From Escherichia phage LH2, in the sequence record OQ378934.1: DNA of 64,000 nt; one strand, given 5' to 3'. The notes below the pieces were generated by a model. The model searched no databases and was not told the DNA's origin. It was given only the letters and a program-made list of their open reading frames with translations. The translations under genes were made by a program, and so were the position numbers. Below are positions 2,180 to 47,489 of the stretch, piece after piece; position 1 is the first letter of the stretch; every line of letters begins with the position of its first letter.

Positions 2180-2542
2180 ATGAAAGCATATCAAATTCTT
2201 GAAGGCACGCATAAAGGTACTATTTATTTTGAAGACGGTATTCAAGCACGAATTATTGTCTCTAAAACCTTTAAAGAGGACTCTTTTGTAGACCCAGAAA
2301 TTTTCTATGGTTTGCATGCCCGTGAAATTGAAATTGAGCAACAGCCTACAGTTAAAATTGAAGGTGGTCAACACCTGAACGTTAACGTTCTGCGTCGTGA
2401 AACTCTGGAAGATGCAGTTAAGCATCCGGAAAAATATCCGCAGCTGACCATCCGTGTATCCGGTTATGCAGTTCGCTTTAACTCTCTGACTCCGGAACAG
2501 CAGCGCGACGTTATCGCTCGTACCTTCACCGAGAGTTTGTAA
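2180..2542 (+). CDS. Autonomous glycyl radical cofactor (GrcA/YfiD-like; equivalent of T4 Y06I)
   Basis: C-terminal ...[59 protein letters not shown] carries the glycyl radical motif RVSGYAVRF; SD GAGG before ATG 2180. Confidence 0.85.
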
Positions 2543-2763
2543 TGGCAAAGATAATTATTGAAGGTTCTGAAGATGTGCTAAATGCTTTCGCCGAATGGTT
2601 TAGTAATTCAGGCGAACAGCAATTTAATGAAGCGTGGACCATGGGTGATATTGATGGAATTTATCCTACGACAGAAATTTCTGTTCAAGGATATGGCATT
2701 CATGAACCTATTCGTTTAGTTGAATATGATTTGGGAACGGGTGAGGAAGTAGAATATGATTGA
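2542..2763 (+). CDS. Hypothetical protein
   Basis: 73-aa ORF, start overlaps upstream stop. Confidence 0.5.
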   Translation: MAKIIIEGSEDVLNAFAEWFSNSGEQQFNEAWTMGDIDGIYPTTEISVQGYGIHEPIRLVEYDLGTGEEVEYD

Positions 2764-3022
2764 AGATATTAAGGGTTATAAGCCACATACTGAAGAGAAA
2801 ATCGGTAAAGTGAATGCTATCAAAGACGCTGAAGTTCGTTTAGGACTTATCTTTGATGCTTTATACGATGAATTCTGGGAAGCACTAGATAATTGTGAAG
2901 ACTGTGAATTCGCGAAGAATTATGCTGAAAGCCTCGATCAGTTAACTATTGCTAAAACGAAACTCAAAGAAGCTAGTATGTGGGCTTGTCGTGCTGTGTT
3001 CCAACCAGAGGAAAAATATTAA
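2756..3022 (+). CDS. Hypothetical protein
   Basis: 88-aa ORF, overlaps neighbours by a few nt. Confidence 0.5.
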
Positions 3023-3300
3023 TGGCTCAATTAAGCGCAGGGTTTGGTTATGAGTATTATACTGCCCCTCGTCGTGTATCTGTTGTTCCTAAGAAAATTC
3101 AAAGTCTTGATGACTTCCAGGAAGTAGTCCGTAAAGCTTTCCAGGACTACGCACGTTATCTTAAAGAAGATTCACAGGACTGTCTCGAAGAAGATGAAAT
3201 TGCTTACTATGAGCAGCGTCTTGAACAGCTTAAAAACTTACATGAGGTTCGTGCAGAAGTTACAAAGTCTATGAATAAATTGATTAGATTTAAAGAATAA
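3022..3300 (+). CDS. Hypothetical protein
   Basis: Internal ATG at 3022 overlapping upstream TAA; 92 aa ([13 protein letters not shown]...). Confidence 0.5.
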
Positions 3301-3359: not shown

Positions 3360-3821
3360 ATGACTATCAACACAGAAGTTTTTATCCGTCGAAATAAGCT
3401 TCGTCGTCACTTTGAGTCGGAGTTTCGTCAAATTAACAATGAGATTCGTGAGGCATCAAAAGCAGCAGGGGTCTCATCGTTTCATCTAAAATATTCTCAG
3501 CATCTTCTTGATCGTGCAATTCAACGGGAGATTGATGAGACATATGTTTTTGAATTATTCCATAAAATAAAAGACCATGTTTTAGAAGTTAATGAATTCC
3601 TGAGTATGCCTCCACGCCCTGATATTGACGAAGATTTTATTGATGGGGTTGAATATCGTCCTGGGCGTTTAGAAATCACAGATGGAAATCTTTGGCTTGG
3701 ATTTACAGTTTGTAAACCTAATGCGAAGTTCAAAGACCCGTCACTTCAGTGCAGGATGGCAATTATCAATAGTCGTCGTTTACCAGGAAAGGCTTCTAAA
3801 GCAGTAATTAAAACTCAATGA
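3360..3821 (+). CDS. regB: Sequence-specific endoribonuclease RegB
   Basis: 153 aa, same length as T4 RegB; MTINTEVFIRRNKLRRHFESEF...; position between denV and tk. Confidence 0.85.
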   Translation: MTINTEVFIRRNKLRRHFESEFRQINNEIREASKAAGVSSFHLKYSQHLLDRAIQREIDETYVFELFHKIKDHVLEVNEFLSMPPRPDIDEDFIDGVEYRPGRLEITDGNLWLGFTVCKPNAKFKDPSLQCRMAIINSRRLPGKASKAVIKTQ

Positions 3822-3828
3822 GGTAAGC

Positions 3829-4374
3829 ATGAGAAAAGCACTACTCGCTGGTCTATTGGCCATTTCTATGATGGCACATAGCTCCGAGCATACTTTCAGT
3901 AATGTCCAACTCGATAACATGCGTTACGCGTATCAATTCGGGGAACAATTTTCTAAGGATGGAAAATATAAAACACATAAAAATATCCACAAAAGCGGAT
4001 TAGGTCATATAATGGCTGCTATTTTATGGCAAGAAAGCTCTGCCGGAGTTAATTTAAAATCTAAACCAAAGCATCATGCCTACGGAATGTTCCAAAATTA
4101 TTTGCCGACAATGCGAGCGAGAGTCAAGGAACTTGGTTATAATATGACTGATGCTGAAATAAAAAGAATGTTGAATAAACGGTCCAATTCAGCTTCCTGG
4201 GCGTACATTGAACTTTCTTATTGGTTAAATATACATAAGGGCGATATAAGAAAGGCTATATCCTCTTATAATTCGGGATGGAATGTTAAAGCAGGTTCTA
4301 AATATGCTTCTGAAGTCCTAGAAAAGGCTAACTACCTTAAAAATAATAAACTTTTGGAAATAGTAAATGACTAA
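3829..4374 (+). CDS. Secreted lytic-transglycosylase-like protein (SLT-domain motifs)
   Basis: Signal peptide MRKALLAGLLAISMMAHS; SLT-like motifs QESSAG, YGMFQN, SYNSGWN. Confidence 0.55.
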   Translation: MRKALLAGLLAISMMAHSSEHTFSNVQLDNMRYAYQFGEQFSKDGKYKTHKNIHKSGLGHIMAAILWQESSAGVNLKSKPKHHAYGMFQNYLPTMRARVKELGYNMTDAEIKRMLNKRSNSASWAYIELSYWLNIHKGDIRKAISSYNSGWNVKAGSKYASEVLEKANYLKNNKLLEIVND

Positions 4375-5381: not shown

Positions 5382-5563
5382 GTCTGAGTAAAGAACAAAA
5401 AGATAAATTGTTTGAGCTTATCCATGAACTTCTAGATGAGCATACAGAAGCAAACACCTTTTATGATGAATACGGCCCGCTATCTCCCGAACAGCAAGAA
5501 GAATTTGCTGACCGGTTTGATAAGAAAGAAAACGAATTAATAGCTTATGTGAATACGCTTTAA
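5378..5563 (+). CDS. Hypothetical acidic protein
   Basis: ATG overlaps upstream stop; 61 aa. Confidence 0.45.
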   Translation: MSLSKEQKDKLFELIHELLDEHTEANTFYDEYGPLSPEQQEEFADRFDKKENELIAYVNTL

Positions 5564-5572
5564 GAAGGTGAT

Positions 5573-6154
5573 ATGGCGAGTTTAATTTTTACTTATGCAG
5601 CAATGAATGCTGGAAAATCTGCTTCTCTTTTGACTGCTGCGCATAATTATAAAGAACGCGGAATGGGTGTATTAGTTCTTAAACCTGTTATTGATACTCG
5701 CGATTCTGTCTGTGAAGTCGTTTCTCGCATTGGAATTAAACAGGAAGCGAATATTATTACGGATGATATGGATATTTTTGAGTTCTATAAATGGGCTGAA
5801 GCACAAAAAGATATTCATTGCGTATTTGTAGATGAAGCTCAGTTTTTAAAAACTGAACAGGTGCATCAATTAAGCCGAATTGTCGATACATACAATGTTC
5901 CTGTTATGGCTTATGGACTAAGGACTGATTTCGCTGGAAAATTATTTGAAGGTTCTAAAGAACTTTTGGCGATTGCAGATAAACTTATTGAACTAAAAGC
6001 AGTTTGTCATTGTGGTAAAAAAGCGATTATGACAGCTCGATTAATGGAAGATGGAACACCAGTTAAAGAAGGTAATCAAATCTGTATTGGTGATGAAATT
6101 TATGTTTCTTTGTGCAGAAAACATTGGAATGAATTAACTAAAAAGCTCGGTTAG
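5573..6154 (+). CDS. tk: Thymidine kinase
   Basis: 193 aa; P-loop AAMNAGKS; Zn-binding Cys pairs near C-terminus; same length as T4 Tk. Confidence 0.9.
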   Translation: MASLIFTYAAMNAGKSASLLTAAHNYKERGMGVLVLKPVIDTRDSVCEVVSRIGIKQEANIITDDMDIFEFYKWAEAQKDIHCVFVDEAQFLKTEQVHQLSRIVDTYNVPVMAYGLRTDFAGKLFEGSKELLAIADKLIELKAVCHCGKKAIMTARLMEDGTPVKEGNQICIGDEIYVSLCRKHWNELTKKLG

Positions 6155-8676: not shown

Positions 8677-9198
8677 ATGTTTATTTCAAGTGGAAGTGGT
8701 TTAATTCGCGTTAAATTTAAAAATGACATCTTCCTTATTCAAGGAGATGATATTATTAAAATGAGTTATGACGAAATCAAGAAAATTTGTCATATTCTTG
8801 AAAGTCGTGGAAAAGGAAATGCTGTTATTGACATCGGTGATTTATGGGTGACACTTTATGAAGTATCCGAAGGATTTAACATTGAAGATGAAAACAACAT
8901 CTTAGCTATTGATAAAAGAAGTGATTTGTTTGATGTGTTAAAAGTTTATGAACAGTCAAACGGTGGAAGAAAAGCTGCATTGATTTATCAAAAACCACAT
9001 TCATGCGGAACTGCTTCAATCATTTCAGATATTGAAGATGAAACTGATACTTATATGTGTATTTTAAAAGCTGGTGGTGACCGTCATCCGGATTTTATTT
9101 CTATTCGTCAAAACAATGGAGAAATTTCATTATCAAAATCAGAAGCTGAAGCTATGATTAAGTATTTAACAACTGTTACACCTTCAATGAAAGGATAA
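8677..9198 (+). CDS. Hypothetical protein (tandem paralog B)
   Basis: 173 aa; shares EGFNIE and C-terminal ...KYLTTVTPSM with upstream ORF. Confidence 0.5.
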   Translation: MFISSGSGLIRVKFKNDIFLIQGDDIIKMSYDEIKKICHILESRGKGNAVIDIGDLWVTLYEVSEGFNIEDENNILAIDKRSDLFDVLKVYEQSNGGRKAALIYQKPHSCGTASIISDIEDETDTYMCILKAGGDRHPDFISIRQNNGEISLSKSEAEAMIKYLTTVTPSMKG

Positions 9199-9200
9199 TT

Positions 9201-9662
9201 ATGATTATTAATGAAAGCTCTTGGCACTATAAATTATTCAAAATGTTTAACGACGAATGGAAACGACCTAAGACACTGTGTGCATATTTTTGGTCTATTG
9301 TTATCCCTACATTTTTCGTTTCTTTTTTCGGATGTACTATACTCGCAGGTCTAACTATCATCTGCGCAGAAATCATGCAGAAATGGCTTATTTTTGGTAG
9401 TTTATGGACTCTTATTCCATCAGCATTTATACTTGCTATTTTGCTTGTTTTACTTATTATTGGTTCATTTGTTATTCCTGCACAATTGCATGAAAAATAT
9501 AAAGATTATAAATGGAAAAAGGATTATGCTTTACATGTAGAAAATATTGATAGAGCGTATAAAGGTTTACCTCCTATTCAACCAAAGAAATCTATTATCG
9601 TCGAATTTTTAAAAGCGCGTAAAGCTAAAGTATGTCCTGTTATTGAATATAAGGCTGAATGA
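9201..9662 (+). CDS. Integral membrane protein
   Basis: 153 aa with two long hydrophobic segments. Confidence 0.5.
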   Translation: MIINESSWHYKLFKMFNDEWKRPKTLCAYFWSIVIPTFFVSFFGCTILAGLTIICAEIMQKWLIFGSLWTLIPSAFILAILLVLLIIGSFVIPAQLHEKYKDYKWKKDYALHVENIDRAYKGLPPIQPKKSIIVEFLKARKAKVCPVIEYKAE

Positions 9663-15178: not shown

Positions 15179-16105
15179 ATGACTCGTAAACACTATATTG
15201 ATTATTTTGACAGTCTTATTACTAAACACCGTAATTATCAGATAGGACACAGAGCAGCAATCAATAATATTCTTCGTGATTTCCTTCAATATGTTGGACA
15301 GGAAAATCATATCTGTAAAGATACTCAAAACGCTTATTCTCATTCGTTAGGCAATTTGCTTGAATGGTTTAAACGTTCTCGTATGTTATCTTCTACTGTA
15401 GCTCGTGATAACATTGAAAACTTTATGAAGCCGAGCTTCATTAAATCTGAGACATCTATAACTGATTTGGTTGAATTTACTATTGTTAACGATGTTAAAA
15501 AGACCCATTTGGCTGATTGGTTATCTACCATTCCTGAAACTAAATTTGCTGATAAATTTGCTTGTCAATTCAATGACCAAGTGAATATGCTTTTTAAGCA
15601 TGCTCGTAAACTATTTACCGCGGGCGATGACCGTACAAATACAGTTCATGTTAAGGACTGGGTTATTGCTGATGAAGTAACACACAAGCCAGGTGGTTCA
15701 TCGGTATTAATTAATATCCAGGTTCCTTATTATTACTCACGTAATCTCGGCACCATGACAGCTAGAGAAATTAATAAGCACAACAAAACTATTCGTTCGT
15801 TGTCTTATAAACTCCGCATGATGCTAAAAATTATGGACGTAGTGGAAATGTATGATGAAACCGAAGATAATGGTTCAATGTTATACAGCTCACGCATTCT
15901 AATTAAACTGAAGAATCCTAATACATATAAGCCAGTTGTAAAAGAACCTAAAGTAGAAAAGGTTGATAACCTGAGCGAAGAACGCGAATATCTCAATGCT
16001 CGTTTGATTGAAGTTGAAGCCCAGATTGCCGAACACACCAAATTGTTAAAAGCTCTTAATGCAAAAGCAAATGGTTTACGTAATGCTATTGAGGTATTGA
16101 AATGA
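15179..16105 (+). CDS. Hypothetical protein with C-terminal coiled-coil tail
   Basis: Start at ATG downstream of the promoter with SD GAGGAG; C-terminus ...[33 protein letters not shown]. Confidence 0.55.
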   Translation: MTRKHYIDYFDSLITKHRNYQIGHRAAINNILRDFLQYVGQENHICKDTQNAYSHSLGNLLEWFKRSRMLSSTVARDNIENFMKPSFIKSETSITDLVEFTIVNDVKKTHLADWLSTIPETKFADKFACQFNDQVNMLFKHARKLFTAGDDRTNTVHVKDWVIADEVTHKPGGSSVLINIQVPYYYSRNLGTMTAREINKHNKTIRSLSYKLRMMLKIMDVVEMYDETEDNGSMLYSSRILIKLKNPNTYKPVVKEPKVEKVDNLSEEREYLNARLIEVEAQIAEHTKLLKALNAKANGLRNAIEVLK

Positions 16106-16913: not shown

Positions 16914-17125
16914 TGCTCGAAGGAACTGATTATATCCATGACTACCGCGGAAGCGCGGTATATGTAGGTGATGAAGTTGCAGTTTACTATGGGTATGGAA
17001 CTTTGATGACAGCCAAGGTTATTCAAATTAAAAATAATCGTGCTAAACTTGAAGTTTATTATTCTAATGGTGAAAAGTCTATTTCTAAGTGGAAATACGG
17101 CGATTGTATGGTCAAACTGGGGTAA
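16910..17125 (+). CDS. Hypothetical protein
   Basis: ATGA overlap with nrdC stop; 71 aa. Confidence 0.5.
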   Translation: MMLEGTDYIHDYRGSAVYVGDEVAVYYGYGTLMTAKVIQIKNNRAKLEVYYSNGEKSISKWKYGDCMVKLG

Positions 17126-17127
17126 AT

Positions 17128-17298
17128 ATGATTTACGATATTAATGTAGCAAGAACTCCGTCAATGGTTACTATTCCTGCTAAAGAACTAGATCGTCTTC
17201 ATAAAATTGAAGAACTTCTTTGGGAAATTGAATCTGATTTGCCATCAGGATTAGAATCCTGGATTGATTATGAAGAACTTAATAAGCTTCGGGGTTAA
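17128..17298 (+). CDS. Hypothetical acidic protein
   Basis: Internal ATG just after upstream TAA; 56 aa. Confidence 0.45.
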   Translation: MIYDINVARTPSMVTIPAKELDRLHKIEELLWEIESDLPSGLESWIDYEELNKLRG

Positions 17299-18390: not shown

Positions 18391-18924
18391 CAATTGAAAA
18401 AGAAATTGAAGGATTGATTCATAAAACTAATAAAGACCTTTTGAACGAGAATGCTAATAAAGATTCTCGTGTTTTTCCAACTCAACGGGACCTTATGGCT
18501 GGTATTGTGTCTAAACACATTGCCAAAAATATGGTTCCGTCTTTTATTATGAAAGCGCATGAAAGCGGAATTATTCACGTGCACGATATTGATTATTCCC
18601 CTGCTCTTCCATTTACTAATTGCTGTTTAGTCGATTTAAAGGGGATGCTTGAGAATGGATTTAAATTAGGCAATGCTCAAATTGAAACGCCTAAATCGAT
18701 CGGTGTTGCTACTGCAATTATGGCACAAATTACTGCACAGGTTGCTTCACATCAGTACGGCGGAACGACTTTTGCTAATGTAGATAAAGTACTTTCTCCT
18801 TATGTTAAACGCACCTATGCAAAACATATTGATGATGCAGAAAAATGGCAAATCGCTGATGCGTTGAATTATGCTCAATCTAAAACAGAAAAAGATGTCT
18901 ATGACGCGTTCCAGGCGTATGAGT
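18387..18924 (+). CDS. nrdD: Anaerobic ribonucleotide reductase NrdD, exon 1
   Basis: Class III RNR N-terminal region; ORF runs into a stop inside the intron; exon ends with U at 18924. Confidence 0.85.
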
Positions 18925-19135
18925 TAATTTAATTCAGGCTCATGTAAAACCGGTCTAAACGGGGAACCTCTCTAGTAGACAATCCCGTGCTAAATGTTCT
19001 TTTGAACTAAATGCCTAACGACTAACCGTGATGAATGTAGCGGTGTAGAATAGAAGCTAATGCTATTCGAAACGGCCGGCATCGAAAGATGAAGATATAG
19101 TCTAATCTGCATGGCGACATGCAGCAGTCATCTTG

Positions 19136-19143
19136 TATAAATA
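19136..19143 (+). promoter_or_regulatory. Late promoter-like TATAAATA inside the intron, upstream of the intron ORF
   Basis: Exact octamer about 30 nt upstream of ATG 19173. Confidence 0.45.
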
Positions 19144-19172
19144 AGATTATCTTATGAATACGAGGTGAAACA

Positions 19173-19943
19173 ATGAAATGGATAAAAAGACGTTGTACTA
19201 AAATAAAAGATAAAGACGCATTTACATACTTAGTTAAGTTTTCTAATGGTGACATTTATATCGGTTATAAAAAATTTAGAACAATTAAAAACAAGCCCAC
19301 AAACTGGAAAACTTACACAACGTCATCTAAGTATATAAATGAACGCTTAAAAACTGATACACCTACTAAATGGATAATTTTAAAAACATTTGATAGTTAT
19401 AAAGATGCATTAAAACATGAAGAAGAGGTCATACGTAAATATTTTTATAGCAAAAAATGTTTAAATAAATCCATAGGCGGTAAAAAGTTTTATAAGCATC
19501 CGGATACTGAAGAACATATTCAAAAATTAAGAGATGCTCATAAGGGTAAAGTGTTATCCGAATCTCATAAAAACAATATAAAATCTTCTGTAGCTGAATA
19601 TTATGCTAAAAACGGAAGATCTAAGGAACATGTGCAAAATAATATCAATAGTCGAAAAAGTAAAAAACAAGTATCGATAAAGCTTAAAAATAAAACTTTT
19701 AGAAGTTTTAAAAAAGCAGCGGAATATTTAAATTGCACTGAAAGTGAAGTCGAAACTCATCCTCTTGTTTTGAGTATTAAGACTACTATTCATAAAGTTC
19801 CTGAATATGTGGTTGTTGACGGTATTAAGTATACGTCTTATATAGAAGCAGCTAAAGCGCTAAATTTTCATCCTAGCACTATAAAAGAACGTTGCATATC
19901 TATGGACTATCCAAATTTTGTTGTTTCATATAAACGGGCATGA
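19173..19943 (+). CDS. Intron-encoded homing-endonuclease-like protein
   Basis: 256 aa, entirely within the intron; degenerate GIY-YIG-like N-terminus (YLVKFSNGDIYIGY) and NUMOD3-like repeats (EEHIQKLRDAHKGK, SESHKNNIKSS). Confidence 0.7.
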   Translation: MKWIKRRCTKIKDKDAFTYLVKFSNGDIYIGYKKFRTIKNKPTNWKTYTTSSKYINERLKTDTPTKWIILKTFDSYKDALKHEEEVIRKYFYSKKCLNKSIGGKKFYKHPDTEEHIQKLRDAHKGKVLSESHKNNIKSSVAEYYAKNGRSKEHVQNNINSRKSKKQVSIKLKNKTFRSFKKAAEYLNCTESEVETHPLVLSIKTTIHKVPEYVVVDGIKYTSYIEAAKALNFHPSTIKERCISMDYPNFVVSYKRA

Positions 19944-19969
19944 ATTTGCGACTCATGCTGAATATAATG

Positions 19970-21249
19970 ATGAAGTAAATACACTTTTCAGCTCTAATGG
20001 ACAAACGCCTTTTGTAACAATTACGTTTGGCACGGGAACTGACTGGACTGAACGAATGATTCAGAAAGCAATTCTGAAAAATCGTATTAAAGGTCTTGGT
20101 CTTGACGGGATAACTCCTATTTTCCCTAAACTTGTTATGTTCGTTGAAGAGGGTGTTAATCTTTATAAAGACGATCCGAACTATGATATTAAGCAGCTTG
20201 CTCTAGAGTGTGCAAGCAAAAGAATGTATCCTGATATTATTTCAGCTAAGAACAATAAAGCTATCACCGGTTCATCTATTCCTGTTTCTCCAATGGGTTG
20301 CCGCAGTTTCTTGAGCGTATGGAAAGATTCGACTGGTAATGAAATTCTTGATGGACGTAATAATCTTGGCGTTGTAACACTGAATCTTCCTCGCATTGCG
20401 CTAGATTCTTATATTGGAACACAGTTCAATGAACAGAAATTTGCCGAATTGTTCAATGAGAGAATGGATTTATGTTTTGAAGCATTGATGTGTAGAATTA
20501 GTTCCTTAAAAGGAGTTAAAGCTACTGTTGCTCCTATTCTTTACCAAGAAGGTGCATTCGGGGTTCGTCTTAAACCTGATGACGATATAATTGAGTTATT
20601 TAAAAACGGTAGAAGTTCAGTGTCCCTAGGATACATTGGTATTCACGAATTGAATATTCTTGTCGGTCGTGATATTGGACAGGAAATTTTAACTAAAATG
20701 AATGCTCGTCTTAAGCAGTGGACCGAAAGAACTGGTTTTGCTTTTAGCTTGTATTCTACTCCTGCTGAAAACCTTTGTTATCGCTTCTGTAAACTTGATA
20801 CCGAAAAATATGGAAGTGTAAAAGATGTTACCGATAAAGGCTGGTACACTAACAGTTTCCATGTTTCAGTAGAAGAAAATATCACTCCGTTTGAAAAGAT
20901 TTCTCGCGAAGCCCCATATCATTTCATTGCGACAGGCGGTCACATTTCTTATGTTGAACTTCCTGATATGAAAAATAACCTAAAAGGTCTTGAGGCTGTA
21001 TGGGATTATGCTGCACAACATTTAGATTATTTTGGTGTTAACATGCCAGTAGATAAATGTTTTACATGCGGAAGTACCCATGAAATGACTCCTACTGAAA
21101 ACGGGTTTGTTTGTTCTATTTGTGGAGAAACTGATCCTAAAAAGATGAACACAATAAGAAGAACATGCGGATATCTTGGAACTCCTAGCGTTGTTCCTTG
21201 GAATTTAGGTAAAATGAAAGAAATGGTAAAACGAGTAAAACATGCATAG
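19970..21249 (+). CDS. nrdD: Anaerobic ribonucleotide reductase NrdD, exon 2
   Basis: Contains the C-terminal glycyl radical motif RRTCGYLG and Cys-rich Zn site CFTCGS...CSICG. Confidence 0.85.
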
Positions 21250-22072
21250 GTATTATATAATTTATAAAATAACAAATATAATTAATTCAAAGGAATATAT
21301 CGGTGCTCATAGCACCGATAATATAAATGATGGTTATATGGGATCAGGAAAATTGATTCATGCTGCTTTATTGAAATATGGCAGAAAAAATTTTTATAAA
21401 GAAATTTTACATGTTTTTGATAATGAAAAACAGATGTATGATAAAGAAGCTGAACTTGTAACTGAAGAGTATTGTCTAAAAGAAAACACATATAATATTA
21501 AACCTGGTGGCAAAGGTGGAACTGCCTATGAACAAACACTTGAACATCGCCGCAAAAATAGTTTAGCAAATAAAGGTAAAAAGAGAACAGCAGAAACTAA
21601 AATAGCTATTTCAAATGCTTTAAAGAACTATAAACGCACACCAGAACATCAAGCAAACATAAATAAAGCTGTAAGAACAGCCATGAAGCGAAAGGATGTT
21701 AGAAGTAAATTAACCGGAGAGCGTTCTGAGAAAGATAAATTATCTATATCAAACGGTGTTAAAAAATATTACAGTTCTTTGAGCGAAGAAGAACGTGAAC
21801 TTCATCGCAAGCGAATTATTGAAGGTAAAAAGAATTCTCCCATGACATTGGAATCCAGACAAAAACTTTCAAAATCTTTAAAAGGACTTCAAGTTGGTTC
21901 AAAAAATCCAATGTATGGAAAAATTTCTCCAACTAGCAAAACCGTTTCAGTTGACGGTATTAAATATGATTCAATTAAAAAATGCTCAAACGCCATAAAA
22001 GTTTCTAGACATCTTATATTAAAACGCTGTAATTCTACTGACGAAGCTTGGAAAAATTGGATATTATTATGA
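21242..22072 (+). CDS. Freestanding GIY-YIG homing endonuclease (Seg-like)
   Basis: YIIYKITNIINSKEYIGAHS...YMGSGKL GIY-YIG module plus NUMOD3 repeats; between nrdD and nrdG. Confidence 0.8.
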   Translation: MHRYYIIYKITNIINSKEYIGAHSTDNINDGYMGSGKLIHAALLKYGRKNFYKEILHVFDNEKQMYDKEAELVTEEYCLKENTYNIKPGGKGGTAYEQTLEHRRKNSLANKGKKRTAETKIAISNALKNYKRTPEHQANINKAVRTAMKRKDVRSKLTGERSEKDKLSISNGVKKYYSSLSEEERELHRKRIIEGKKNSPMTLESRQKLSKSLKGLQVGSKNPMYGKISPTSKTVSVDGIKYDSIKKCSNAIKVSRHLILKRCNSTDEAWKNWILL

Positions 22073-22653: not shown

Positions 22654-22869
22654 ATGTATAAATTTCGTAAAGGTTTAGCTGATTTTCTTACAACTGTAAC
22701 GTTCTTTTTGTTTATGGCAGTTGGTGCTATTTTTCTTATTCCTTTTATTGCTATATTTTTCGTGATTAGTTTGATTTCTCCAGAAAAAGGACTATCTTCT
22801 AGCGAGTTCAATGAGCGTCTGGATAAAATTACTAACAAACTGAATGCTGTTCTTGATAAAAAGGCTTAA
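22654..22869 (+). CDS. Small membrane protein
   Basis: Hydrophobic segment FLFMAVGAIFLIPFIAIFFVISLI; start chosen at internal ATG after AAGGG. Confidence 0.45.
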   Translation: MYKFRKGLADFLTTVTFFLFMAVGAIFLIPFIAIFFVISLISPEKGLSSSEFNERLDKITNKLNAVLDKKA

Positions 22870-22871
22870 TT

Positions 22872-23183
22872 ATGATTAGTTTTGAGCGGTATGTGGTAGA
22901 GAGTTGGAAGGGTTTTGATATGTTCGGTAATGACTATTATTTCTATGAATGTAGTCTAAATCCTAGTTTTTGGGCTGGACGAGAACGAGAACTCGAAGAA
23001 ATTAATAACCGTGCTGAATTGTTAGGTGAATTACCTACAGTTTATTTTACTTTTGATGCATCTGGATTTGTTATCCAGGTTTATTTTCCTGAAGAAAATT
23101 CTGGCGATGATTCTGTTAACCCGCCATACTGGGCTTATCAAGGAATTATTTCTCGTGGAACAAAACTCGAACTTAAAGAATAA
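22872..23183 (+). CDS. Hypothetical protein
   Basis: 103-aa ORF. Confidence 0.5.
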   Translation: MISFERYVVESWKGFDMFGNDYYFYECSLNPSFWAGRERELEEINNRAELLGELPTVYFTFDASGFVIQVYFPEENSGDDSVNPPYWAYQGIISRGTKLELKE

Positions 23184-24900: not shown

Positions 24901-25166
24901 AATTTATTAATATTTCTATTACTATTGAAAATTATGGAATTTTCTATGTTGACCAATACATGAAAATTTCATTTTTCCCAAATAAAACTGGTGTTGGATA
25001 TTGGGAAAGCCATGTTTCTGAATTAACTGGAAGTAAATATTTTAATACCCATAAAAAGTTTTTAGACTTTTTATATCGCGCTGATATTAATGATCATTAC
25101 ATAGATATTCATGAATTTAAAAAGATGATGGAGAAAGTGTTCCAAGCATACTGCTTACTTAGATAA
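24897..25166 (+). CDS. Hypothetical protein
   Basis: 89-aa ORF, ATGA overlap. Confidence 0.45.
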   Translation: MKFINISITIENYGIFYVDQYMKISFFPNKTGVGYWESHVSELTGSKYFNTHKKFLDFLYRADINDHYIDIHEFKKMMEKVFQAYCLLR

Positions 25167-25189
25167 CTGATATCCTCTATGCTTTAAGA

Positions 25190-26714: not shown

Positions 26715-26738
26715 AAACCAAAACAATGAGGATATTAA

Positions 26739-27941
26739 ATGAAAGTATGTATTTTTATGGCTCGAGGTCTTGAAGGTTGCGGTGTAACTAAATTTTCTCT
26801 TGAGCAGCGTGATTGGTTTATTAAAAATGGTCATGAAGTAACTTTGGTTTATGCTAAAGATAAATCATTTACTCGTAATTGCGCGCATGATTATAAATCA
26901 TTTTCAATTCCGGTTTTATTGGCAAAAGAATACGATAAAACACTTAAGCTGGTAAATGATTGTGATATTCTAATTATCAATTCAGTTCCTGCTACTTCAG
27001 TAGAAGAAGACACAATTAATAACTATAAAAAAATTATTGATAATATTAAACCTTCGGTTCGTGTTGTAGTTTATCAGCATGACCATTCTTCTCTTTCTTT
27101 ACGCCGAAATTTGGGATTAGAAGAAACTGTTCGTCGAGCTGATGTTATTTTTAGCCATTCTGATAATGGTGATTTTAATAAAGTTTTAATGAAAGAATGG
27201 TATCCGGAAACTGTTTCTTTGTTTGATGATATTGAAGAAGCACCGACCGTATATAACTTTCAGCCTCCTATGGATATTGCGAAGGTTCGATCAACCTACT
27301 GGAAAGATGTTTCTGAAATTAACATGAATATCAACCGTTGGATTGGTCGTACTACTACATGGAAAGGCTTTTATCAGATGTTTGATTTCCACGAAAAACA
27401 TCTTAAACCTGCAGGACTAAGTACTATTATGGAAGGTCTGGAACGTTCTCCAGCATTCATTCCTATTAAAGAAAAAGGAATTCCATACGAGTATTATCGT
27501 CTTCATCAAGTAGACCAAATTAAAATTGCTCCTAATTTGCCGACGCAAATTCTCGACCGTTATGTAAATAGCGAAATGCTTGAACGCATGAGTAAATCCG
27601 GATTTGGTTATCAGCTGAGTAAGTTGGACAAAAAATATCTACAGCGTTCTTTAGAATACACTCATCTCGAGCTTGGTGCATGTGGAACAATTCCAGTATT
27701 TTGGAAATCTACTGGTGAAAATTTAAAATTCCGTGTTGATAATACTCCGTTAATTTCTCATGATAGCGGTATCGTTTGGTTTGATGAAAATGACATGGAA
27801 TCAACATTTGAGCGTATTAAAGAACTGTCATCTGACCGAGCTCTTTATGACCGTGAACGTGAAAAAGCTTATGAATTTTTGTATCAGCATCAAGATTCAA
27901 GCTTCTGTTTTAAAGAACAGTTTGACATTATTACAAAATAA
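26739..27941 (+). CDS. agt: DNA alpha-glucosyltransferase
   Basis: 400 aa; N-terminus M..CIFMARGLEGCGVTKFSLEQRDWFIKNGHEV as recalled for T4 alpha-gt; between 55 and 47. Confidence 0.88.
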   Translation: MKVCIFMARGLEGCGVTKFSLEQRDWFIKNGHEVTLVYAKDKSFTRNCAHDYKSFSIPVLLAKEYDKTLKLVNDCDILIINSVPATSVEEDTINNYKKIIDNIKPSVRVVVYQHDHSSLSLRRNLGLEETVRRADVIFSHSDNGDFNKVLMKEWYPETVSLFDDIEEAPTVYNFQPPMDIAKVRSTYWKDVSEINMNINRWIGRTTTWKGFYQMFDFHEKHLKPAGLSTIMEGLERSPAFIPIKEKGIPYEYYRLHQVDQIKIAPNLPTQILDRYVNSEMLERMSKSGFGYQLSKLDKKYLQRSLEYTHLELGACGTIPVFWKSTGENLKFRVDNTPLISHDSGIVWFDENDMESTFERIKELSSDRALYDREREKAYEFLYQHQDSSFCFKEQFDIITK

Positions 27942-31961: not shown

Positions 31962-32648
31962 ATGAAATTATCTAAAGACACGCTGAATATTTTGAAAAAT
32001 TTCGCTACTATTAACTCTGGTATTATGCTTAAATCTGGTCAATTTATTATGACTCGCGCGGTTAATGGTACAACTTATGCAGAAGCAAATATTTCTGACA
32101 CTATTGATTTTGATGTAGCAATTTACGATTTGAACGGTTTTCTCGGTATTCTGTCTCTAGTTAATGATGATGCAGAAATTTCCCAGTCAGAAGATGGAAA
32201 TATTAAAATTGCTGATGCTCGTTCAACAATTTTTTGGCCAGCAGCCGATCCGAGTACAGTAGTTGCTCCTAATAAACCAATTCCATTCCCGGTAGCATCT
32301 GTTGTTACTGAAATTAAAGCGGAAGACCTTCAACAGCTGTTGCGTGTATCTCGCGGTCTGCAGATTGATACAATTGCTATCACAGTAAAAGAAGGTAAAA
32401 TCGTAATTAACGGTTTTAATAAAGTGGAAGATTCTGCTTTGACCCGTGTTAAATATTCTTTGACTCTTGGTGATTATGATGGTGAAAATACATTTAATTT
32501 CATTATCAATATGGCAAATATGAAAATGCAACCAGGAAATTATAAACTTCTGCTCTGGGCAAAAGGTAAACAAGGCGCTGCTAAATTTGAAGGTGAACAC
32601 GCGAATTATGTAGTAGCTCTTGAAGCTGATTCTACCCACGATTTTTAA
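31962..32648 (+). CDS. 45: Sliding clamp gp45
   Basis: 228 aa; MKLSKDTLNILKNFATINSGIMLKSGQFIMTRAVNGTTYAEANISD... Confidence 0.92.
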   Translation: MKLSKDTLNILKNFATINSGIMLKSGQFIMTRAVNGTTYAEANISDTIDFDVAIYDLNGFLGILSLVNDDAEISQSEDGNIKIADARSTIFWPAADPSTVVAPNKPIPFPVASVVTEIKAEDLQQLLRVSRGLQIDTIAITVKEGKIVINGFNKVEDSALTRVKYSLTLGDYDGENTFNFIINMANMKMQPGNYKLLLWAKGKQGAAKFEGEHANYVVALEADSTHDF

Positions 32649-32652
32649 TAGA

Positions 32653-32664
32653 GGGCTTCGGCCC
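32653..32664 (+). terminator. UUCG-loop hairpin after gene 45
   Basis: gggc-ttcg-gccc. Confidence 0.45.
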
Positions 32665-32699
32665 TTTATAATTTACATTAAAACTTGAATGAGGAAATT

Positions 32700-33659
32700 A
32701 TGATTACTGTAAATGAAAAAGAACACATTCTTGAACAGAAATATCGTCCATCTACTATCGATGAATGTATTCTTCCCGCCTTTGATAAAGAAACCTTTAA
32801 ATCTATTACAAGTAAAGGTAAGATTCCACATATTATTCTTCATTCTCCTTCTCCAGGAACAGGTAAAACAACTGTAGCAAAAGCGTTGTGTCATGATGTA
32901 AATGCTGATATGATGTTTGTGAATGGGTCAGATTGTAAAATTGATTTCGTTCGCGGTCCTTTGACTAATTTTGCTAGTGCAGCTTCATTTGATGGTCGTC
33001 AAAAAGTAATCGTTATTGATGAATTTGACCGTTCAGGGTTAGCAGAGTCTCAGCGACATCTTCGTTCCTTTATGGAAGCTTATAGTTCAAACTGTAGTAT
33101 TATTATTACTGCTAACAATATTGATGGTATTATTAAACCGCTTCAGTCACGCTGCCGAGTTATTACGTTCGGTCAACCGACCGATGAAGATAAAATTGAA
33201 ATGATGAAGCAGATGATTCGTCGATTGACTGAAATCTGTAAGCATGAAGGAATTGCTATAGCTGATATGAAAGTTGTAGCAGCTTTGGTTAAAAAGAATT
33301 TTCCTGATTTTCGTAAAACTATTGGCGAGCTCGATAGTTATTCGTCTAAAGGTGTTTTGGATGCTGGTATTTTATCACTGGTTACTAACGATCGTGGTGC
33401 TATTGATGATGTTCTTGAGTCTCTCAAAAATAAAGATGTTAAACAACTCAGAGCTTTAGCACCAAAATATGCGGCTGATTATTCGTGGTTCGTTGGTAAA
33501 CTTGCCGAAGAAATCTATACACGCGTAACTCCACAAAGTATTATTCGTATGTATGAAATTGTTGGTGAAAATAACCAGTATCACGGAATTGCGGCTAATA
33601 CGGAATTACATTTAGCATATCTTTTCATTCAATTGGCATGCGAAATGCAGTGGAAGTGA
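32700..33659 (+). CDS. 44: Clamp-loader ATPase subunit gp44
   Basis: 319 aa from ATG 32700; Walker [11 protein letters not shown]; Walker B VIVIDEFD. Confidence 0.9.
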
Positions 33660-38343: not shown

Positions 38344-39084
38344 ATGATTAATGACTCTATGACAGTTGAAGAAATCCGTCTTCATTTGGGAATTGCATTA
38401 AAGGAAAAAGATTTCGTAGTTGATAAAACTGGTGTTAAAACTATTGAAATTATTGGTGCATCATTTGTAGCAGATGAACCTTTTATTTTTGGCGCTCTTA
38501 ATGACGAATACATTCAGCGTGAACTTGAATGGTATAAATCTAAAAGTTTGTTTGTTAAAGATATTCCGGGTGAAACACCGAAGATTTGGCAGCAGGTAGC
38601 ATCTTCTAAAGGCGAAATTAACTCGAATTATGGTTGGGCCATCTGGTCGGAAGATAACTATGCTCAGTATGACATGTGTTTAGCTGAACTTGGTCAAAAT
38701 CCTGATTCTCGACGTGGTATCATGATTTATACTCGTCCATCCATGCAGTTTGACTACAATAAAGATGGCATGTCAGATTTCATGTGTACGAATACAGTGC
38801 AGTACCTGATTCGTGATAAGAAAGTCAATGCAGTGGTTAACATGAGAAGCAATGATTGCTGGGCAGGCTATCGTAATGATTATGCATGGCAAAAATACGT
38901 ATTAGATAAATTAGTATCTGATTTGAATGCAGGCGATTCAACTCGTCAGTATAAAGCAGGTTCTATTATATGGAATGTTGGAAGTCTTCATGTATATTCT
39001 CGTCATTTTTACTTGGTTGATCATTGGTGGAATACTGGCGAAACTCATATTATGAAAAAAGATTATAACGGTGAGTGGAAATGA
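38344..39084 (+). CDS. 42: dCMP hydroxymethylase gp42
   Basis: 246 aa; thymidylate-synthase-like fold motifs; close match to T4 gp42 as recalled. Confidence 0.92.
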   Translation: MINDSMTVEEIRLHLGIALKEKDFVVDKTGVKTIEIIGASFVADEPFIFGALNDEYIQRELEWYKSKSLFVKDIPGETPKIWQQVASSKGEINSNYGWAIWSEDNYAQYDMCLAELGQNPDSRRGIMIYTRPSMQFDYNKDGMSDFMCTNTVQYLIRDKKVNAVVNMRSNDCWAGYRNDYAWQKYVLDKLVSDLNAGDSTRQYKAGSIIWNVGSLHVYSRHFYLVDHWWNTGETHIMKKDYNGEWK

Positions 39085-39923
39085 TTCAATTTGTAATTCC
39101 AAGTTATCAACGTGTAGGGGCAGTTTCTGCCCTTGATATGTTTCCGACTGATTATGAACCTCATATTGTAGTACGTGAACACGAAGAAAAAGCTTATTAT
39201 GATGCTTATGGGTCTAGAGCTAAAATTATAACTATTCCTGATGATGTTAATGGAATTGCTGGTACTCGTAAAGCAATTACTAATATGTATGCAGGTCAAC
39301 GAATCTGGATGATTGATGATGATACTACTATTCGTATGAGTTCAATGCGAAAGAAAGATGATCGTCGCTGCGTAGATAAAATTAATCAATTAACTCGTGA
39401 ACAGTTCTATGAATTGATTCAATACGTTGAAGATGCCATGGATTGTGGGTATTATCACGGTCATGCTCGTCTACCTATTTTTAAAATTACTTCATCTTGG
39501 GGTAATTATCGTGAAAATTCATATGGATTCACGAATACCTGGTATGACCTCGGAAAACTTACAACAGAACAAATTGGGTATGGAAAAATTGATTTATGCG
39601 AAGATATGTATGCATTTCTCAATTTAATTAATCAAGGTTATCCGCATTTGGCCTTGTTCAAATATCTGGTTGTATCTGGAAAAGCACAAGCTCCAGGCGG
39701 ATGTAGTTCAATTCGTAGTAATTCAAAACATAATAGAGCTCTTGAGCAAATCAATAGAGAGTTTCCGGAGCAAGCTCGTTGGAAAACTTCTAATATTGAA
39801 AAACGAAAATCATTAGGTGAAGAAGACGAGCCATTAAAGGTTCTTCGCATGTGTGTTTCACGCAAAGAAAAATCAGAAGCGTTTCATAAGTTTAATGCTA
39901 TTCATCCAATAGCGGTTGATTAA
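39081..39923 (+). CDS. Glycosyltransferase, GT-A-like (DxD motif), at the beta-gt locus
   Basis: FVIPSYQR N-terminus and IDDDTTIR DxD motif; does not resemble T4 beta-glucosyltransferase as I recall it. Confidence 0.6.
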   Translation: MIQFVIPSYQRVGAVSALDMFPTDYEPHIVVREHEEKAYYDAYGSRAKIITIPDDVNGIAGTRKAITNMYAGQRIWMIDDDTTIRMSSMRKKDDRRCVDKINQLTREQFYELIQYVEDAMDCGYYHGHARLPIFKITSSWGNYRENSYGFTNTWYDLGKLTTEQIGYGKIDLCEDMYAFLNLINQGYPHLALFKYLVVSGKAQAPGGCSSIRSNSKHNRALEQINREFPEQARWKTSNIEKRKSLGEEDEPLKVLRMCVSRKEKSEAFHKFNAIHPIAVD

Positions 39924-39927
39924 TGAC

Positions 39928-40593
39928 ATGAAAAGACATAAAGAAAAGAAATATAATTATACTTATGTTATAACTAATTTAGTTAATAATAAAATTTACT
40001 ATGGAACTCATTCAACCGATGATTTAAATGATGGTTATATGGGATCAGGAACTTTATTAGCACAAGCCAAGAAAAAGTATGGTAAGAAAAATTTTAATTT
40101 AAGCATTCTTGGGTTTTATAAAGATTTTAAATCAGCCCGTGATGCTGAAAGAGAATTAGTAACAATAGATGTGGTAAATGATCCTATGACTTATAATTTA
40201 AAAATTGGTGGAGAGGGTGGTAGAAGAATTGGTTATAGAGTTTCATCAGAAACCAAAGAAAAAATTTCAAAAGCTCAAAAAGGAAAACCAAAACATCTTG
40301 GATTTAGTGATGTTTGCCGGAAAGCCCAGCTAGGCAAAAAGCAGTCAGAAGAAACTAAAGCAAAACGAAAAGAAGCTTTGCTTAATAATCCATATGGTTA
40401 TAATAGAAATAAACCATCACATAAACGTGACCCAATAATGTGGGATAACATTGAAAAGATTAAAGAAATATGGGAAAACTCTGGAAAACCCGGTGCTATT
40501 AAGCTTAAAAAATTAGCAATTGAAGCTGGATTTCCAAATAAATCTTATGCAAGAATGCTCGAAGTATTTCGTGGAACAAGAACACTACTATAA
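39928..40593 (+). CDS. Freestanding GIY-YIG homing endonuclease (Seg-like)
   Basis: YVITNLVNNKIYYGTHS...YMGSGTLL; paralog of the 21242 ORF; NUMOD3-like repeats. Confidence 0.75.
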   Translation: MKRHKEKKYNYTYVITNLVNNKIYYGTHSTDDLNDGYMGSGTLLAQAKKKYGKKNFNLSILGFYKDFKSARDAERELVTIDVVNDPMTYNLKIGGEGGRRIGYRVSSETKEKISKAQKGKPKHLGFSDVCRKAQLGKKQSEETKAKRKEALLNNPYGYNRNKPSHKRDPIMWDNIEKIKEIWENSGKPGAIKLKKLAIEAGFPNKSYARMLEVFRGTRTLL

Positions 40594-40601
40594 GGTATTA
40601 T

Positions 40602-44403: not shown

Positions 44404-44415
44404 TTAGAGGTTAAT

Positions 44416-44772
44416 ATGTATAGTTCTGAATTTCCATATTTAAAAATGGAAAAAATTTCATACGATTTTATAGATGAAAAGGTTTATTACAGTTTTCATG
44501 AGCCGCGTTTTAACAGTGAAGTCGGTTTTATTGTAGTAAAAGACAATTTCATTTTAAAGATATATTCGGCATTAAAGGATTTTCACTACGAAAATATTAA
44601 CCTAAAATTTGATAAAGAAAACGTTCGTAATTGCGCAGTAACAATTACAGGAAATAAAGGTACATGCGTTATGCTATCTGATGAAATTAATGATTTGCTA
44701 AATGATGCCGAAAAGGTTGTTATTCCATCGATTGATGACCAAATTTTTAATGCTTTTATGAATAGAGGTTAA
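44416..44772 (+). CDS. Hypothetical protein
   Basis: 118-aa ORF. Confidence 0.5.
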   Translation: MYSSEFPYLKMEKISYDFIDEKVYYSFHEPRFNSEVGFIVVKDNFILKIYSALKDFHYENINLKFDKENVRNCAVTITGNKGTCVMLSDEINDLLNDAEKVVIPSIDDQIFNAFMNRG

Positions 44773-45969: not shown

Positions 45970-46166
45970 ATTAACCCAACTAAAGCAAATGCTAAATCTA
46001 CGAATGTATCAAGAGTAATTACTGGAATACTAACGCCATGAGCAATAGCAACTGGCGATAAAACAAAATTCCAAAGTAAAATTCCTATCATAGCAGAAAT
46101 AGTAAAAGCTATACGTTTTTTATTACCTTTGATGGCATTAACAAGTGCCATTAATTTTTGTACCAT
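45966..46166 (-). CDS. Small membrane protein encoded on the opposite strand
   Basis: 66 aa, two hydrophobic segments; strong SD (AAGGAGG) 6 nt before ATG on the minus strand; convergent with 61. Confidence 0.55.
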   Translation of the reverse strand: MVQKLMALVNAIKGNKKRIAFTISAMIGILLWNFVLSPVAIAHGVSIPVITLDTFVDLAFALVGLI

Positions 46167-46179
46167 ATGTCCTCCTTAT

Positions 46180-46203
46180 TGCTTTATATATTTATTGTAT
46201 AAT
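46180..46203 (+). promoter_or_regulatory. Candidate MotA-dependent middle promoter upstream of the HNH gene
   Basis: tgcttta 46180-46186; tataat 46198-46203. Confidence 0.4.
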
Positions 46204-46236
46204 TAATCTACTAACCAATGAATTGAAAGGATATAT

Positions 46237-47407: not shown

Positions 47408-47451
47408 TAGCTCGTTTATTTAAACGACGACTTAAAAGCCGCGAGAATTAT

Positions 47452-47459: not shown

Positions 47460-47489
47460 ATCATGTAATTTAAATAAAAGGAGAATTAC

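Follow-up and report, generated by a model that had tools for sequence, protein, structure and literature searches.

Five homing endonuclease genes of T-even kinds in a 64-kb segment of a T4-like phage

Between nrdD and nrdG of Escherichia phage LH2 (record OQ378934.1) lies a free-standing gene that a first-pass annotation had counted among five homing-endonuclease-like genes (two GIY-YIG, two HNH and an intron ORF), placed at sites that differ from T4 and subject to turnover. The locus raises the question of which elements these are, and whether their number, sites and state differ from what is known in T-even phages. I refer to the whole stretch of DNA analysed, 64 kb in length, as the window; the features described below lie on its plus strand, with the exception of the empty sites, which are given without a strand. 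All five ORFs were found, full length, exactly where they had been described and between correctly named flanking genes, and their families are borne out by Pfam or PHROG matches, identity to T4 proteins and aligned motifs. All keep the nuclease motifs that could be placed, and judged by these none of the five looks catalytically dead, as had been considered. A tblastn search of the 64 kb with all T4 Seg and Mob proteins identified no further copy. Four of the five are already-named T-even elements (I-TevII-like, SegH, SegA and MobA), and the fifth, the HNH gene at 46237–46887, is a relative of MobD that is annotated in databases, though uncharacterised. The window is a segment of a mosaic Tequatrovirus (T4-like) genome, and the finding is correct but ordinary; dense and variable endonuclease genes are textbook T-even biology. 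I hold with high confidence that the best explanation is a mosaic T4-like segment carrying five intact homing endonuclease genes of known T-even kinds, which would home as do their characterised relatives.

The homologous ∼64 kb of T4 contains seven such genes (mobA, segF, segA, mobB, mobC, I-TevII and mobD), so that five is no excess. The turnover proposed in the first-pass annotation is real, because the endonuclease set differs between T4 (seven genes), the window (five), T6 (segH only) and T2 (none of these), and a synteny comparison with these phages confirmed that endonuclease positions are not identical among close relatives. The claim that the sites differ from T4 does not stand as worded: the intron ORF, segA and mobA are exactly at T4 sites, segH is in the slot that T4 fills with mobC, and only the HNH gene upstream of gene 56 occupies a site at which T4 has no endonuclease gene. 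That gene, and the empty slot between 56 and soc, are real differences from T4. The empty spacer (47408–47489, 82 bp) corresponds to the segF site of T4, where T4 positions 16307–15610 (segF) are unmatched in the window, and the mobB site (26723–26748) is also empty, T4 positions 38679–37817 having no counterpart. Within the window no counterpart was found for T4 segF, mobB, mobD or dam. The absence of mobB and mobD, the missing dam, the divergent intron lineage and the intact mobA had been overlooked previously. At the T4 mobD site, ∼960 bp (8695–9658) that do not align to T4 led to the suspicion of a sixth endonuclease, but this candidate was ruled out: the two ORFs located there (8677–9662; 173 and 153 amino acids) correspond to a paralogue of a neighbouring gene and a membrane protein, with no tblastn match to MobD or to any other Seg or Mob protein.

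Each of the five genes is present in only ∼5–13% of roughly 520 Tequatrovirus-like records, with counts of ∼26 for segA, 41 for mobA, 45 for the intron ORF, 58 for the HNH gene and ∼67 for segH (roughly 520–900 matching records). Empty sites were identified for all four free-standing genes, in T2 and T6 for segA and mobA, in T2 for segH, and in T6, W143 and phage 132 for the HNH gene. All four therefore show presence/absence polymorphism at fixed intergenic sites, with clean insertion boundaries.

The gene between nrdD and nrdG (21242–22072) is segH, which encodes a free-standing GIY-YIG homing endonuclease of 276 amino acids. Its product is identical at 260 of 276 positions (94%) to the annotated SegH of T6, found at the same locus, and the name is also carried by homologues in the PP01, F2 and SYGD1 records. 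Position between nrdD and nrdG, absence of the T4 mobC and high identity to the named T6 protein identify it as the SegH orthologue. The replacement of mobC by segH in some T4 relatives is already on record (Sandegren, Nord & Sjöberg 2005, Nucleic Acids Res 33:6203, PMC1275590, doi 10.1093/nar/gki932), and SegH is reported, according to papers that cite this study, to cleave site-specifically and to show biased inheritance. The protein matches PHROG 314 ('homing endonuclease', E=2.6e-60), with NUMOD3 above the Pfam cut-off, and is 44–47% identical to SegA over the nuclease domain (E 1e-22 to 2e-26). It gives no match to PF01541, which SegA itself passes, and scores 18.3 bits for PF19835, below the cut-off of 25. 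The GIY-YIG motif pair is present in the N-terminal region, as IIY (6–8) and YIG (19–21), ∼10 residues apart. Y8, Y19 and G21 are invariant in an alignment with SegA, SegF and I-TevII, and residues E69 and N85 do not vary among five Seg/I-TevII proteins, three of which (SegA, SegF and I-TevII) have been shown by experiment to be active. No position in the Seg/I-TevII alignment could be assigned to the canonical GIY-YIG arginine, the equivalent of Arg27 of I-TevI. Single-sequence searches of SegH and of the HNH protein encoded upstream of gene 56 against solved structures returned only chance-level matches, and small family profiles were needed; with these, the top PDB match for SegH was the I-TevI catalytic domain (1LN0), weakly (E=0.58) but over the motifs.

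Linked to segH is a recoded nrdD 3′ end, comprising the last 64 bp of that gene (21186–21249). The match to T2 and T4 stops at 21185, where the glycyl-radical codons lie, and the C-terminus reads ...GYLGTPSVVPWNLGKMKEMVKRVKHA in the window and T6, both of which carry segH, and ...GYLGNPNERGFNLGKNKEIMHRVKHQ in T2 and T4. No island of identity to T6 was found around segH, which is ∼90–98% identical, as are its flanks; there is therefore no sign of recent segH transfer. It shares 8 bp with nrdD and 4 bp with nrdG, the same overlaps as in T6. This close fit, with the missing identity island, would be expected if some of the five genes were domesticated or decaying, no longer homing and kept vertically by operon packing, that is by overlapping start and stop codons and by embedded ribosome-binding sites and promoters; such embedded regulatory signals do favour retention (PMC2988022). 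I consider this unlikely, as none of the five ORFs is truncated or has lost its motifs, and as other elements of the window show evidence of movement, described below.

Upstream, nrdD is interrupted by a group I intron (18925–19969), a clean 1045-bp insertion relative to the intron-less nrdD of T6. It is inserted at the splice site that its counterpart in T4 nrdD also uses, and belongs to a divergent lineage: the two introns are 55–78% identical, compared to 90–99% for the exons. Exon 1 ends in T (U) and the last base of the intron is G, and these splice bases, together with the precise insertion and a match to Rfam RF00028 at 18893–19109 (52.1 bits, gathering score 50), place it among group I introns. 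The intron encodes an I-TevII-like GIY-YIG protein of 256 amino acids (19173–19943), with 56% amino-acid identity to T4 I-TevII over its full length, and matches to SegE_GIY-YIG (26.6 bits, cut-off 25) and NUMOD1. The ORF is at least 99% identical at the nucleotide level in 44 of 45 phage records, in which the flanks differ by several percent.

The second GIY-YIG gene, segA (39928–40593, 221 amino acids), is found between a glucosyltransferase gene and uvsX, as in T4. All of its 666 nucleotides are identical to those of several T4 records, T4T among them, and identity to the reference AF158101 is 99.8%; the protein is 99.5% identical to that of the T4 reference, and matches the Pfam GIY-YIG family with 37.4 bits (E=3.3e-9). 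Relative to T6, segA is a 682-bp insertion. Analysis of identity in 200-nt windows delineated a T4-identical block (39901–41200) that encompasses segA and the first ∼600 bp of uvsX: identity to T4 is 99–100% to about 41200, then 94–98% (∼96% background), and identity to T6 over the same uvsX stretch is 73–84%, then 94–99%. This block is probably a co-conversion tract. The gene upstream of segA (39075–39923) is a glucosyltransferase of the T2/T6 type, absent from T4.

Such a mosaic could in principle arise when T-even phages that infect the same cell exchange modules in the ordinary way, with the endonuclease genes as passengers rather than drivers of the differences from T4. Endonuclease-free differences do occur, at ipII/ipIII, nrdC.4, 49.2/49.3, 61.2, motB.1 and the glucosyltransferase, and the gene 56 allele described below is widespread without the HNH gene. 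However, mosaic boundaries meet endonuclease genes at the level of single bases (39901, 46231/46874 and 21185), an identity island shared between genera is confined to the HNH cassette and about 25 bp, and endonuclease-dependent marker exclusion has been demonstrated in published crosses for SegF, SegA-type enzymes and MobA (PMC2988022; bioRxiv 10.1101/2022.08.31.505936). A purely passenger role is thus very unlikely, and homing by intact endonucleases is the reading retained here.

The gene for the topoisomerase large subunit is split into genes 39 and 60 by the MobA mobile element (59628–60733), whose boundaries were set against the fused gene 39 of T6; at 1106 bp, its size is within the published 1097–1106 nt (bioRxiv 10.1101/2022.08.31.505936). 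It contains an intact HNH gene, mobA (59738–60556, 272 amino acids), with a GTG start and a 23-bp overlap with gene 39, both in agreement with a review of these elements (PMC2988022). Downstream is the gene 60 translational bypass gap (60675–60724, 50 nt), with a take-off GGA at 60672–4, a UAG stop and a landing GGA at 60722–4; the gap and hairpin region differs from T4 by one base. The length of ∼1.1 kb, the HNH ORF within 269–279 amino acids and the bypass cassette downstream assign the element to the MobA-bypass type. The T4 reference copy of mobA contains 11 single-base indels, and mobA of laboratory T4 has been described as a pseudogene (bioRxiv 10.1101/2022.08.31.505936). That T4 has kept its own mobA in this form is a further point in favor of vertically retained remnants.

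The other HNH gene (46237–46887) encodes a protein of 216 amino acids, and is located directly upstream of gene 56, in an interval where T4 has dam. The protein is 34% identical to T4 MobD over its full length, and is not orthologous to any T4 mob gene. It matches PHROG 655 with E=1e-59 (MobA, E=2.5e-57), and the two HNH proteins of the window are 49% identical over their first 92 residues. Both possess the HH...N...H(...H) motif, in ERHHIIPRCIGGADDKNNLVELTAREHFIAH and GEIHHILPRSMGGSDDKENLVKLTFREHFLAH, at positions that are invariant across T4 MobB, MobC and MobD, and a family profile recovers HNH domains in 6ME0 (E=2.4e-6), McrA and colicin E7. Neither reaches the Pfam threshold for PF01844 (18.8 and 20.1 bits, against 21.4); the short, divergent Mob-type domain falls just under this cut-off, and membership in the HNH family is based on motif and profile.

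Aligned base by base with W143, phage 132 and T6, in which the site is empty, the window shows an inserted cassette of 642 bp (46232–46873). On either side of the cassette is a copy of a 7-bp direct repeat, GAAAGGA (46225–46231 and 46874–80), which is the Shine-Dalgarno sequence of gene 56. Upstream of the cassette, a middle-promoter-like element (TTGCTTTA ... TATAAT; 46179–46203) is native to the spacer between genes 61 and 56: T6, W143 and phage 132 have it although they lack the cassette, and its homologue in fPS-2 is annotated 'predicted middle promoter'. Among the 58 phage records that contain the HNH gene, 22 are from Klebsiella phages. The cassette is 95–99% identical to that of the Klebsiella Jiaodavirus 5N, within flanks of 60–75% identity, and the identity island between Tequatrovirus and Jiaodavirus comprises the cassette and about 25 bp, no wider. 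That the Shine-Dalgarno sequence of gene 56 is now supplied by the cassette could favor its retention as a remnant. Against this, the intron ORF, segA and the HNH gene are near-identical in otherwise diverged genomes, which argues for recent movement of all three.

A variant gene 56 5′ end (46889–46915) travels with the cassette: the four close carriers of the HNH gene, which span two genera, all have ATGCCACATTTCAACGAATGTAGTCA, and T6 and phage 132 differ (ATGGCTCACTTTAATGAATGT...). As identity to T6 and T4 drops to 74–76% at the cassette end, it was suspected that a private immune allele of the entire gene 56 accompanies the cassette. This strong form was rejected, as the same allele is found at 95% identity or more in 163 records, most without the HNH gene, and only the first ∼27 bp of gene 56 remain a candidate immunity patch. 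The variant 5′ end is also found in some genomes devoid of the HNH gene, such as W143 and L012, and may thus simply mark co-conversion passively, without acting as an immunity patch.

Proteins with HNH domains serve many functions, and this one, which is uncharacterised, scores under the Pfam HNH cut-off and is co-transcribed with the nucleotide-metabolism gene 56; it might thus not home but serve the phage in another way, for example by packaging or repairing DNA or by competing with other elements. I regard this as improbable, since the protein has the full architecture of T4 Mob proteins (N-terminal MNYxKIY...HH..N..H, NUMOD3, and a C-terminal module like that of SegA), occurs in only about 7% of relatives and at one site in every case, is part of a cleanly inserted cassette with a repeat that resembles a target site, and has been transferred between genera. 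A more specific proposal is that the gene is an active homing cassette that moves between Tequatrovirus and Jiaodavirus, and inserts at an exact point, after the Shine-Dalgarno sequence and before the start-codon region of the dCTPase gene 56; I give this an even chance. Both genes would then stay translated, since the cassette duplicates the 7-bp Shine-Dalgarno sequence, and the ∼27 bp of recoded 5′ gene 56 could serve as target-site immunity. If so, gene 56 would be attacked from both sides by unrelated enzymes, the HNH protein upstream and SegF or an fPS-2-type HNH protein downstream. A literature search found no specific description of an endonuclease between 61/dam and 56.

The mechanism of homing is taken here from characterised members of these families; what the window itself contributes is polymorphism, intact motifs and recoded or donor-identical patches. 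In a mixed infection, the partner phage has an endonuclease-free allele of the conserved gene adjacent to each element; the enzyme would cut or nick this allele, and recombinational repair would then copy the endonuclease gene, with nearby donor sequence, into the recipient genome. The carrier would be protected because the insertion, or the recoded patch beside it, disrupts the target. SegA cuts uvsX and SegF cuts gene 56, MobA and MobE nick their targets, and all are inherited at high frequency (PMC2988022); MobA is active in T4 relatives (bioRxiv 10.1101/2022.08.31.505936). Possible footprints of such events, recoded or donor-identical, are found at the 3′ end of nrdD, at the 5′ ends of uvsX and gene 56, and at gene 39/60.

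These observations add little beyond confirmation, but the window is a tidy natural illustration of T-even endonuclease genes, in which, beside every element, an essential neighbour gene has a patch that is either recoded or identical to the donor. A modest new detail is the HNH cassette, near-identical across Tequatrovirus and Klebsiella Jiaodavirus amid diverged flanks. It is the sole part that could justify bench work, and, being near-identical across two genera and inserted so as to duplicate a Shine-Dalgarno sequence, it lends itself readily to mapping of its target site.

Each element can be set against a known system. The window segH and that of T6 (MH550421) share the nrdD/nrdG locus, which is the slot of T4 mobC, a length of 276 amino acids, 94% identity, the GIY-YIG N-terminal domain, NUMOD3 and an I-TevI-like DNA-binding tail, and differ by 16 amino-acid substitutions. 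The intron resembles the T4 nrdD (sunY) intron and its I-TevII in insertion site, in the ribozyme core upstream with the ORF near the 3′ end, and in encoding a GIY-YIG enzyme of nearly the same length; at 56% amino-acid identity for the ORF and 55–78% nucleotide identity for the RNA, it is a distinct allele, near-invariant (at least 99%) in 44 records. T4 SegA (Sharma & Hinton 1994; PMC2988022) is matched in sequence, in its site upstream of uvsX and in the T4-type 5′ uvsX attached, whereas the upstream neighbour in the window is a beta-glucosyl-HMC-alpha-glucosyltransferase of the T2/T6 type instead of the T4 beta-gt. The MobA element agrees with the gene 60 bypass cassette (Bonocora et al. 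2011, as cited in bioRxiv 10.1101/2022.08.31.505936) in its 1106 bp, topoisomerase position, 272-residue HNH protein, GTG start, 23-bp overlap and 50-nt bypass, and its mobA is intact, unlike the pseudogene of laboratory T4. Finally, the HNH protein upstream of gene 56 shares the Mob architecture and 34% identity with T4 MobD, and is a functional analogue of SegF, in that both are encoded by free-standing endonuclease genes abutting gene 56. However, segF is downstream of 56 and belongs to a different nuclease family, and the window HNH gene also occurs in Klebsiella Jiaodavirus.

The five endonuclease-like ORFs claimed by the first-pass annotation are all found in the window, at the positions given. 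Pfam and PHROG scans place those at 21242–22072, 39928–40593 and 19173–19943 (the ORF of the nrdD intron) in the GIY-YIG/Seg group, and those at 46237–46887 and 59738–60556 in the HNH/Mob group, the latter followed by DNA-binding motifs of NUMOD type. The description of each pair as paralogs was fair, with 44–47% identity over the nuclease domains for the two free-standing GIY-YIG proteins and 49% for the HNH pair. A tblastn search with the five proteins and every T4 Seg and Mob protein of the region revealed no sixth copy or fragment in the window.

As read from an alignment with T4 MobB, MobC and MobD, both HNH proteins keep all invariant residues of the E-x-HH-I-x-P...GG-x-DD-x-x-N-L-V...H-x-x-x-H block, and the profile of this alignment finds HNH domains in McrA, colicin E7, Cas8f-HNH fusions and, at E = 2.4e-6, a group II intron maturase. 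With SegA, SegF and I-TevII, which are listed as active (PMC2988022), the three GIY-YIG proteins have in common the Tyr/Tyr-x-Gly motifs, one Glu and one Asn. The canonical GIY-YIG arginine was not located in that alignment, and the top match of the profile to structures, I-TevI, is weak (E = 0.58). Catalytically dead proteins would have counted against the earlier interpretation; nothing in these motif alignments suggests catalytic death for any of the five.

T4 (∼1–67187) aligns with the whole window in reverse orientation, end to end, at 81–98% identity, with the familiar gene order rIIA-60-39 ... 56-61-41-uvsX-42-43 ... nrdG-nrdD-49 ... tk-e. Since no record in the phage collection searched is close to the window along its full length (best local identities 96–99%), I consider it an unsampled mosaic Tequatrovirus. 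The window also differs from T4 by indels or replacements in which no endonuclease is involved, at 733–740, 5554–5573, 15182–15198, 16914–17297, 22854–23179, 24911–25172, 44404–44728, 55395–55840 and 57506–57878. The T4 genes ipII/ipIII, tk.1, nrdC.4 and 55.4 are missing, 49.2/49.3, 61.2 and motB.1 are swapped for other sequence, and the window has additional small ORFs, such as one at 22872–23183, and a lipoprotein-like ORF at 57868–58140. T6 possesses an 855-bp ORF, T6ORF054, between 46 and 46.1 (32495–33349 of the fetched locus), missing from both the window and T4.

The homologous stretch of T4 is annotated with seven endonuclease genes, namely mobA, segF, segA, mobB, mobC, I-TevII and mobD. 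Synteny with T4 upholds the claim that the sites differ for only one gene in five, the HNH gene before gene 56, which alone among them has no counterpart in T4. The mobA, segA and nrdD intron ORF sites are common to both phages, and the mobC slot is taken in the window by the GIY-YIG gene at 21242–22072. Compared with T4, segF and mobB are simply absent, and two unrelated ORFs occupy the mobD position. In this region T6 carries segH alone: its gene 39 is fused, segA and the intron are missing, and the 61/56 junction is empty. In T2 all five are absent; dam lies upstream of 56, and nrdG directly overlaps nrdD. The endonuclease sets thus differ among the window, T4, T6 and T2, and the turnover that had been expected is borne out.

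The gene at 21242–22072 is assigned as SegH from its sequence (260/276 amino acids identical to T6 SegH), a name used in the T6, PP01, F2 and SYGD1 records. It has been reported that segH replaces MobC in some relatives (bioRxiv 10.1101/2022.08.31.505936). Relative to the empty T2 junction, the segH unit starts at 21186, inside nrdD at the glycyl-radical codons, and compared with T2 and T4 the carriers (window, T6) have a recoded nrdD 3′ end, 64 bp long. The segH gene shares 8 bp with nrdD and 4 bp with nrdG. Along the locus identity to T6 stays flat, so that nothing points to a recent transfer of segH.

The segA gene is identical at 666/666 nucleotides to several T4 records, T4T among them (99.8% to the AF158101 reference), and no more than 26 records, most of them T4 stocks, contain it. 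Identity to T4 is 99–100% over the stretch from 39901 to about 41200, which spans segA and the first ∼600 bp of uvsX, before dropping to a 94–98% background; against T6 the same uvsX stretch is 73–84% identical, rising abruptly to 94–99% beyond. SegA cleavage has been reported within uvsX (PMC2988022), and the block has the appearance of a tract co-converted from a T4-like donor. Its upstream neighbour (39075–39923) is a T2/T6-type beta-glucosyl-HMC-alpha-glucosyltransferase, a gene that T4 lacks, and not the T4 beta-gt. The window further contains an alpha-gt gene (26739–27941), and together these suggest T2/T6-like DNA glucosylation in a phage bearing the T4 segA/uvsX block.

A group I intron model matches 18893–19109 above the Rfam threshold, and the intron is a clean 1045-bp insertion (18925–19969) at the T4 site. 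It is 55–78% identical to the T4 intron, compared with 90–99% for the exons, and its ORF product is 56% identical to I-TevII. The allele is at least 99% identical in 44 of 45 records, whereas no record exceeds 96.3% identity to the adjacent nrdD-nrdG segment, a pattern that fits recent spread.

Compared with T6, whose gene 39 is fused, the mobA element is a 1106-bp insertion (59628–60733), within the published range of 1097–1106 nt (bioRxiv 10.1101/2022.08.31.505936). Eleven single-base indels separate the T4 reference mobA from the intact 272-codon gene of the window, in agreement with the reported pseudogene status of mobA in laboratory T4 and the retention of an active gene in relatives (bioRxiv 10.1101/2022.08.31.505936). 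The 50-nt bypass gap is intact, with one base different from T4. This single difference in the gene 60 bypass region (60669–60725) lies just past the take-off hairpin, with GCTATCTATAG in T4 and GCTATCCATAG in the window.

The HNH protein encoded before gene 56 resembles MobD most closely (34% identity, full length). The ∼85 residues at its C-terminus (46612–46869) are about 33% identical to the SegA C-terminus (40318–40569; E∼4e-8); two unrelated nuclease families appear to share a DNA-binding module. The gene is found in 58 records, 36 of Tequatrovirus type and 22 from Klebsiella phages at ∼91%, and is immediately 5′ of gene 56 in all fetched loci, namely ELT1 (after dam), Yersinia phage fPS-2 and Klebsiella Jiaodavirus 5N; more distant homologues (79–81% at the amino acid level) also precede gene 56 in two metagenomic loci. 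Compared with Jiaodavirus 5N, the primase gene is 50–73% and gene 56 65–80% identical, but the HNH gene is 95–98% (5′ end) and 96–99% (3′ end) identical, with the high identity extending about 25 bp into gene 56. Jiaodavirus 5N has a second MobD-like HNH gene, ∼35% identical to that of the window, directly upstream of the primase gene (1572–2207 of the fetched locus). In fPS-2, the slot between 56 and soc (segF in T4, empty in the window) is occupied by a different 278-aa HNH-like ORF with the motif HHILPK (3498–4334 of the fetched locus); endonuclease-like genes therefore flank gene 56 on both sides in fPS-2.

Relative to the empty sites of W143, phage 132 and T6, the HNH insert spans 46232–46873 and has on either side a copy of the 7-bp repeat GAAAGGA, the Shine-Dalgarno sequence of gene 56. 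The endonuclease, with its GTG start, uses the left copy; gene 56 uses the right one, which lies inside the last codons of the HNH gene. The cassette is promoter-less, since the middle-promoter-like element just 5′ of it belongs to the native spacer; several T4 endonuclease genes are likewise promoter-less (PMC2988022). A variant start of gene 56 (∼27–32 bp), differing from T6 and phage 132 mostly at synonymous positions, is common to four out of four close HNH carriers and also occurs in a few HNH-less genomes. The remainder of the allele is common without HNH. The enzyme probably acts close to the gene 56 start, and the variant patch may either confer immunity or be only a co-converted marker.

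T4 has dam in the interval where the window has the HNH gene, and dam is missing from the window. The absence is clean at junction 46178, exactly where ELT1 has an 879-bp dam segment (2279–3156 of the fetched locus) followed by the same HNH gene. In T4 and T2, dam is followed by 56, and both dam and HNH are lacking in T6, W143 and phage 132. Between the primase gene and the cassette lies an antisense 66-aa ORF (45966–46166, minus strand), conserved with or without dam or HNH; it is named dam.1 in T6 and annotated as a hypothetical protein in ELT1, fPS-2, W143 and phage 132.

The first-pass observation stands. Its interpretation, turnover of endonuclease genes that bias inheritance of nearby markers, is right in spirit, but its headline was overstated. 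Both the phenomenon and four of the genes have been described before. The remaining one, the HNH gene before 56, is new and uncharacterised but belongs to a known kind, and dozens of genome annotations already label it a homing endonuclease.
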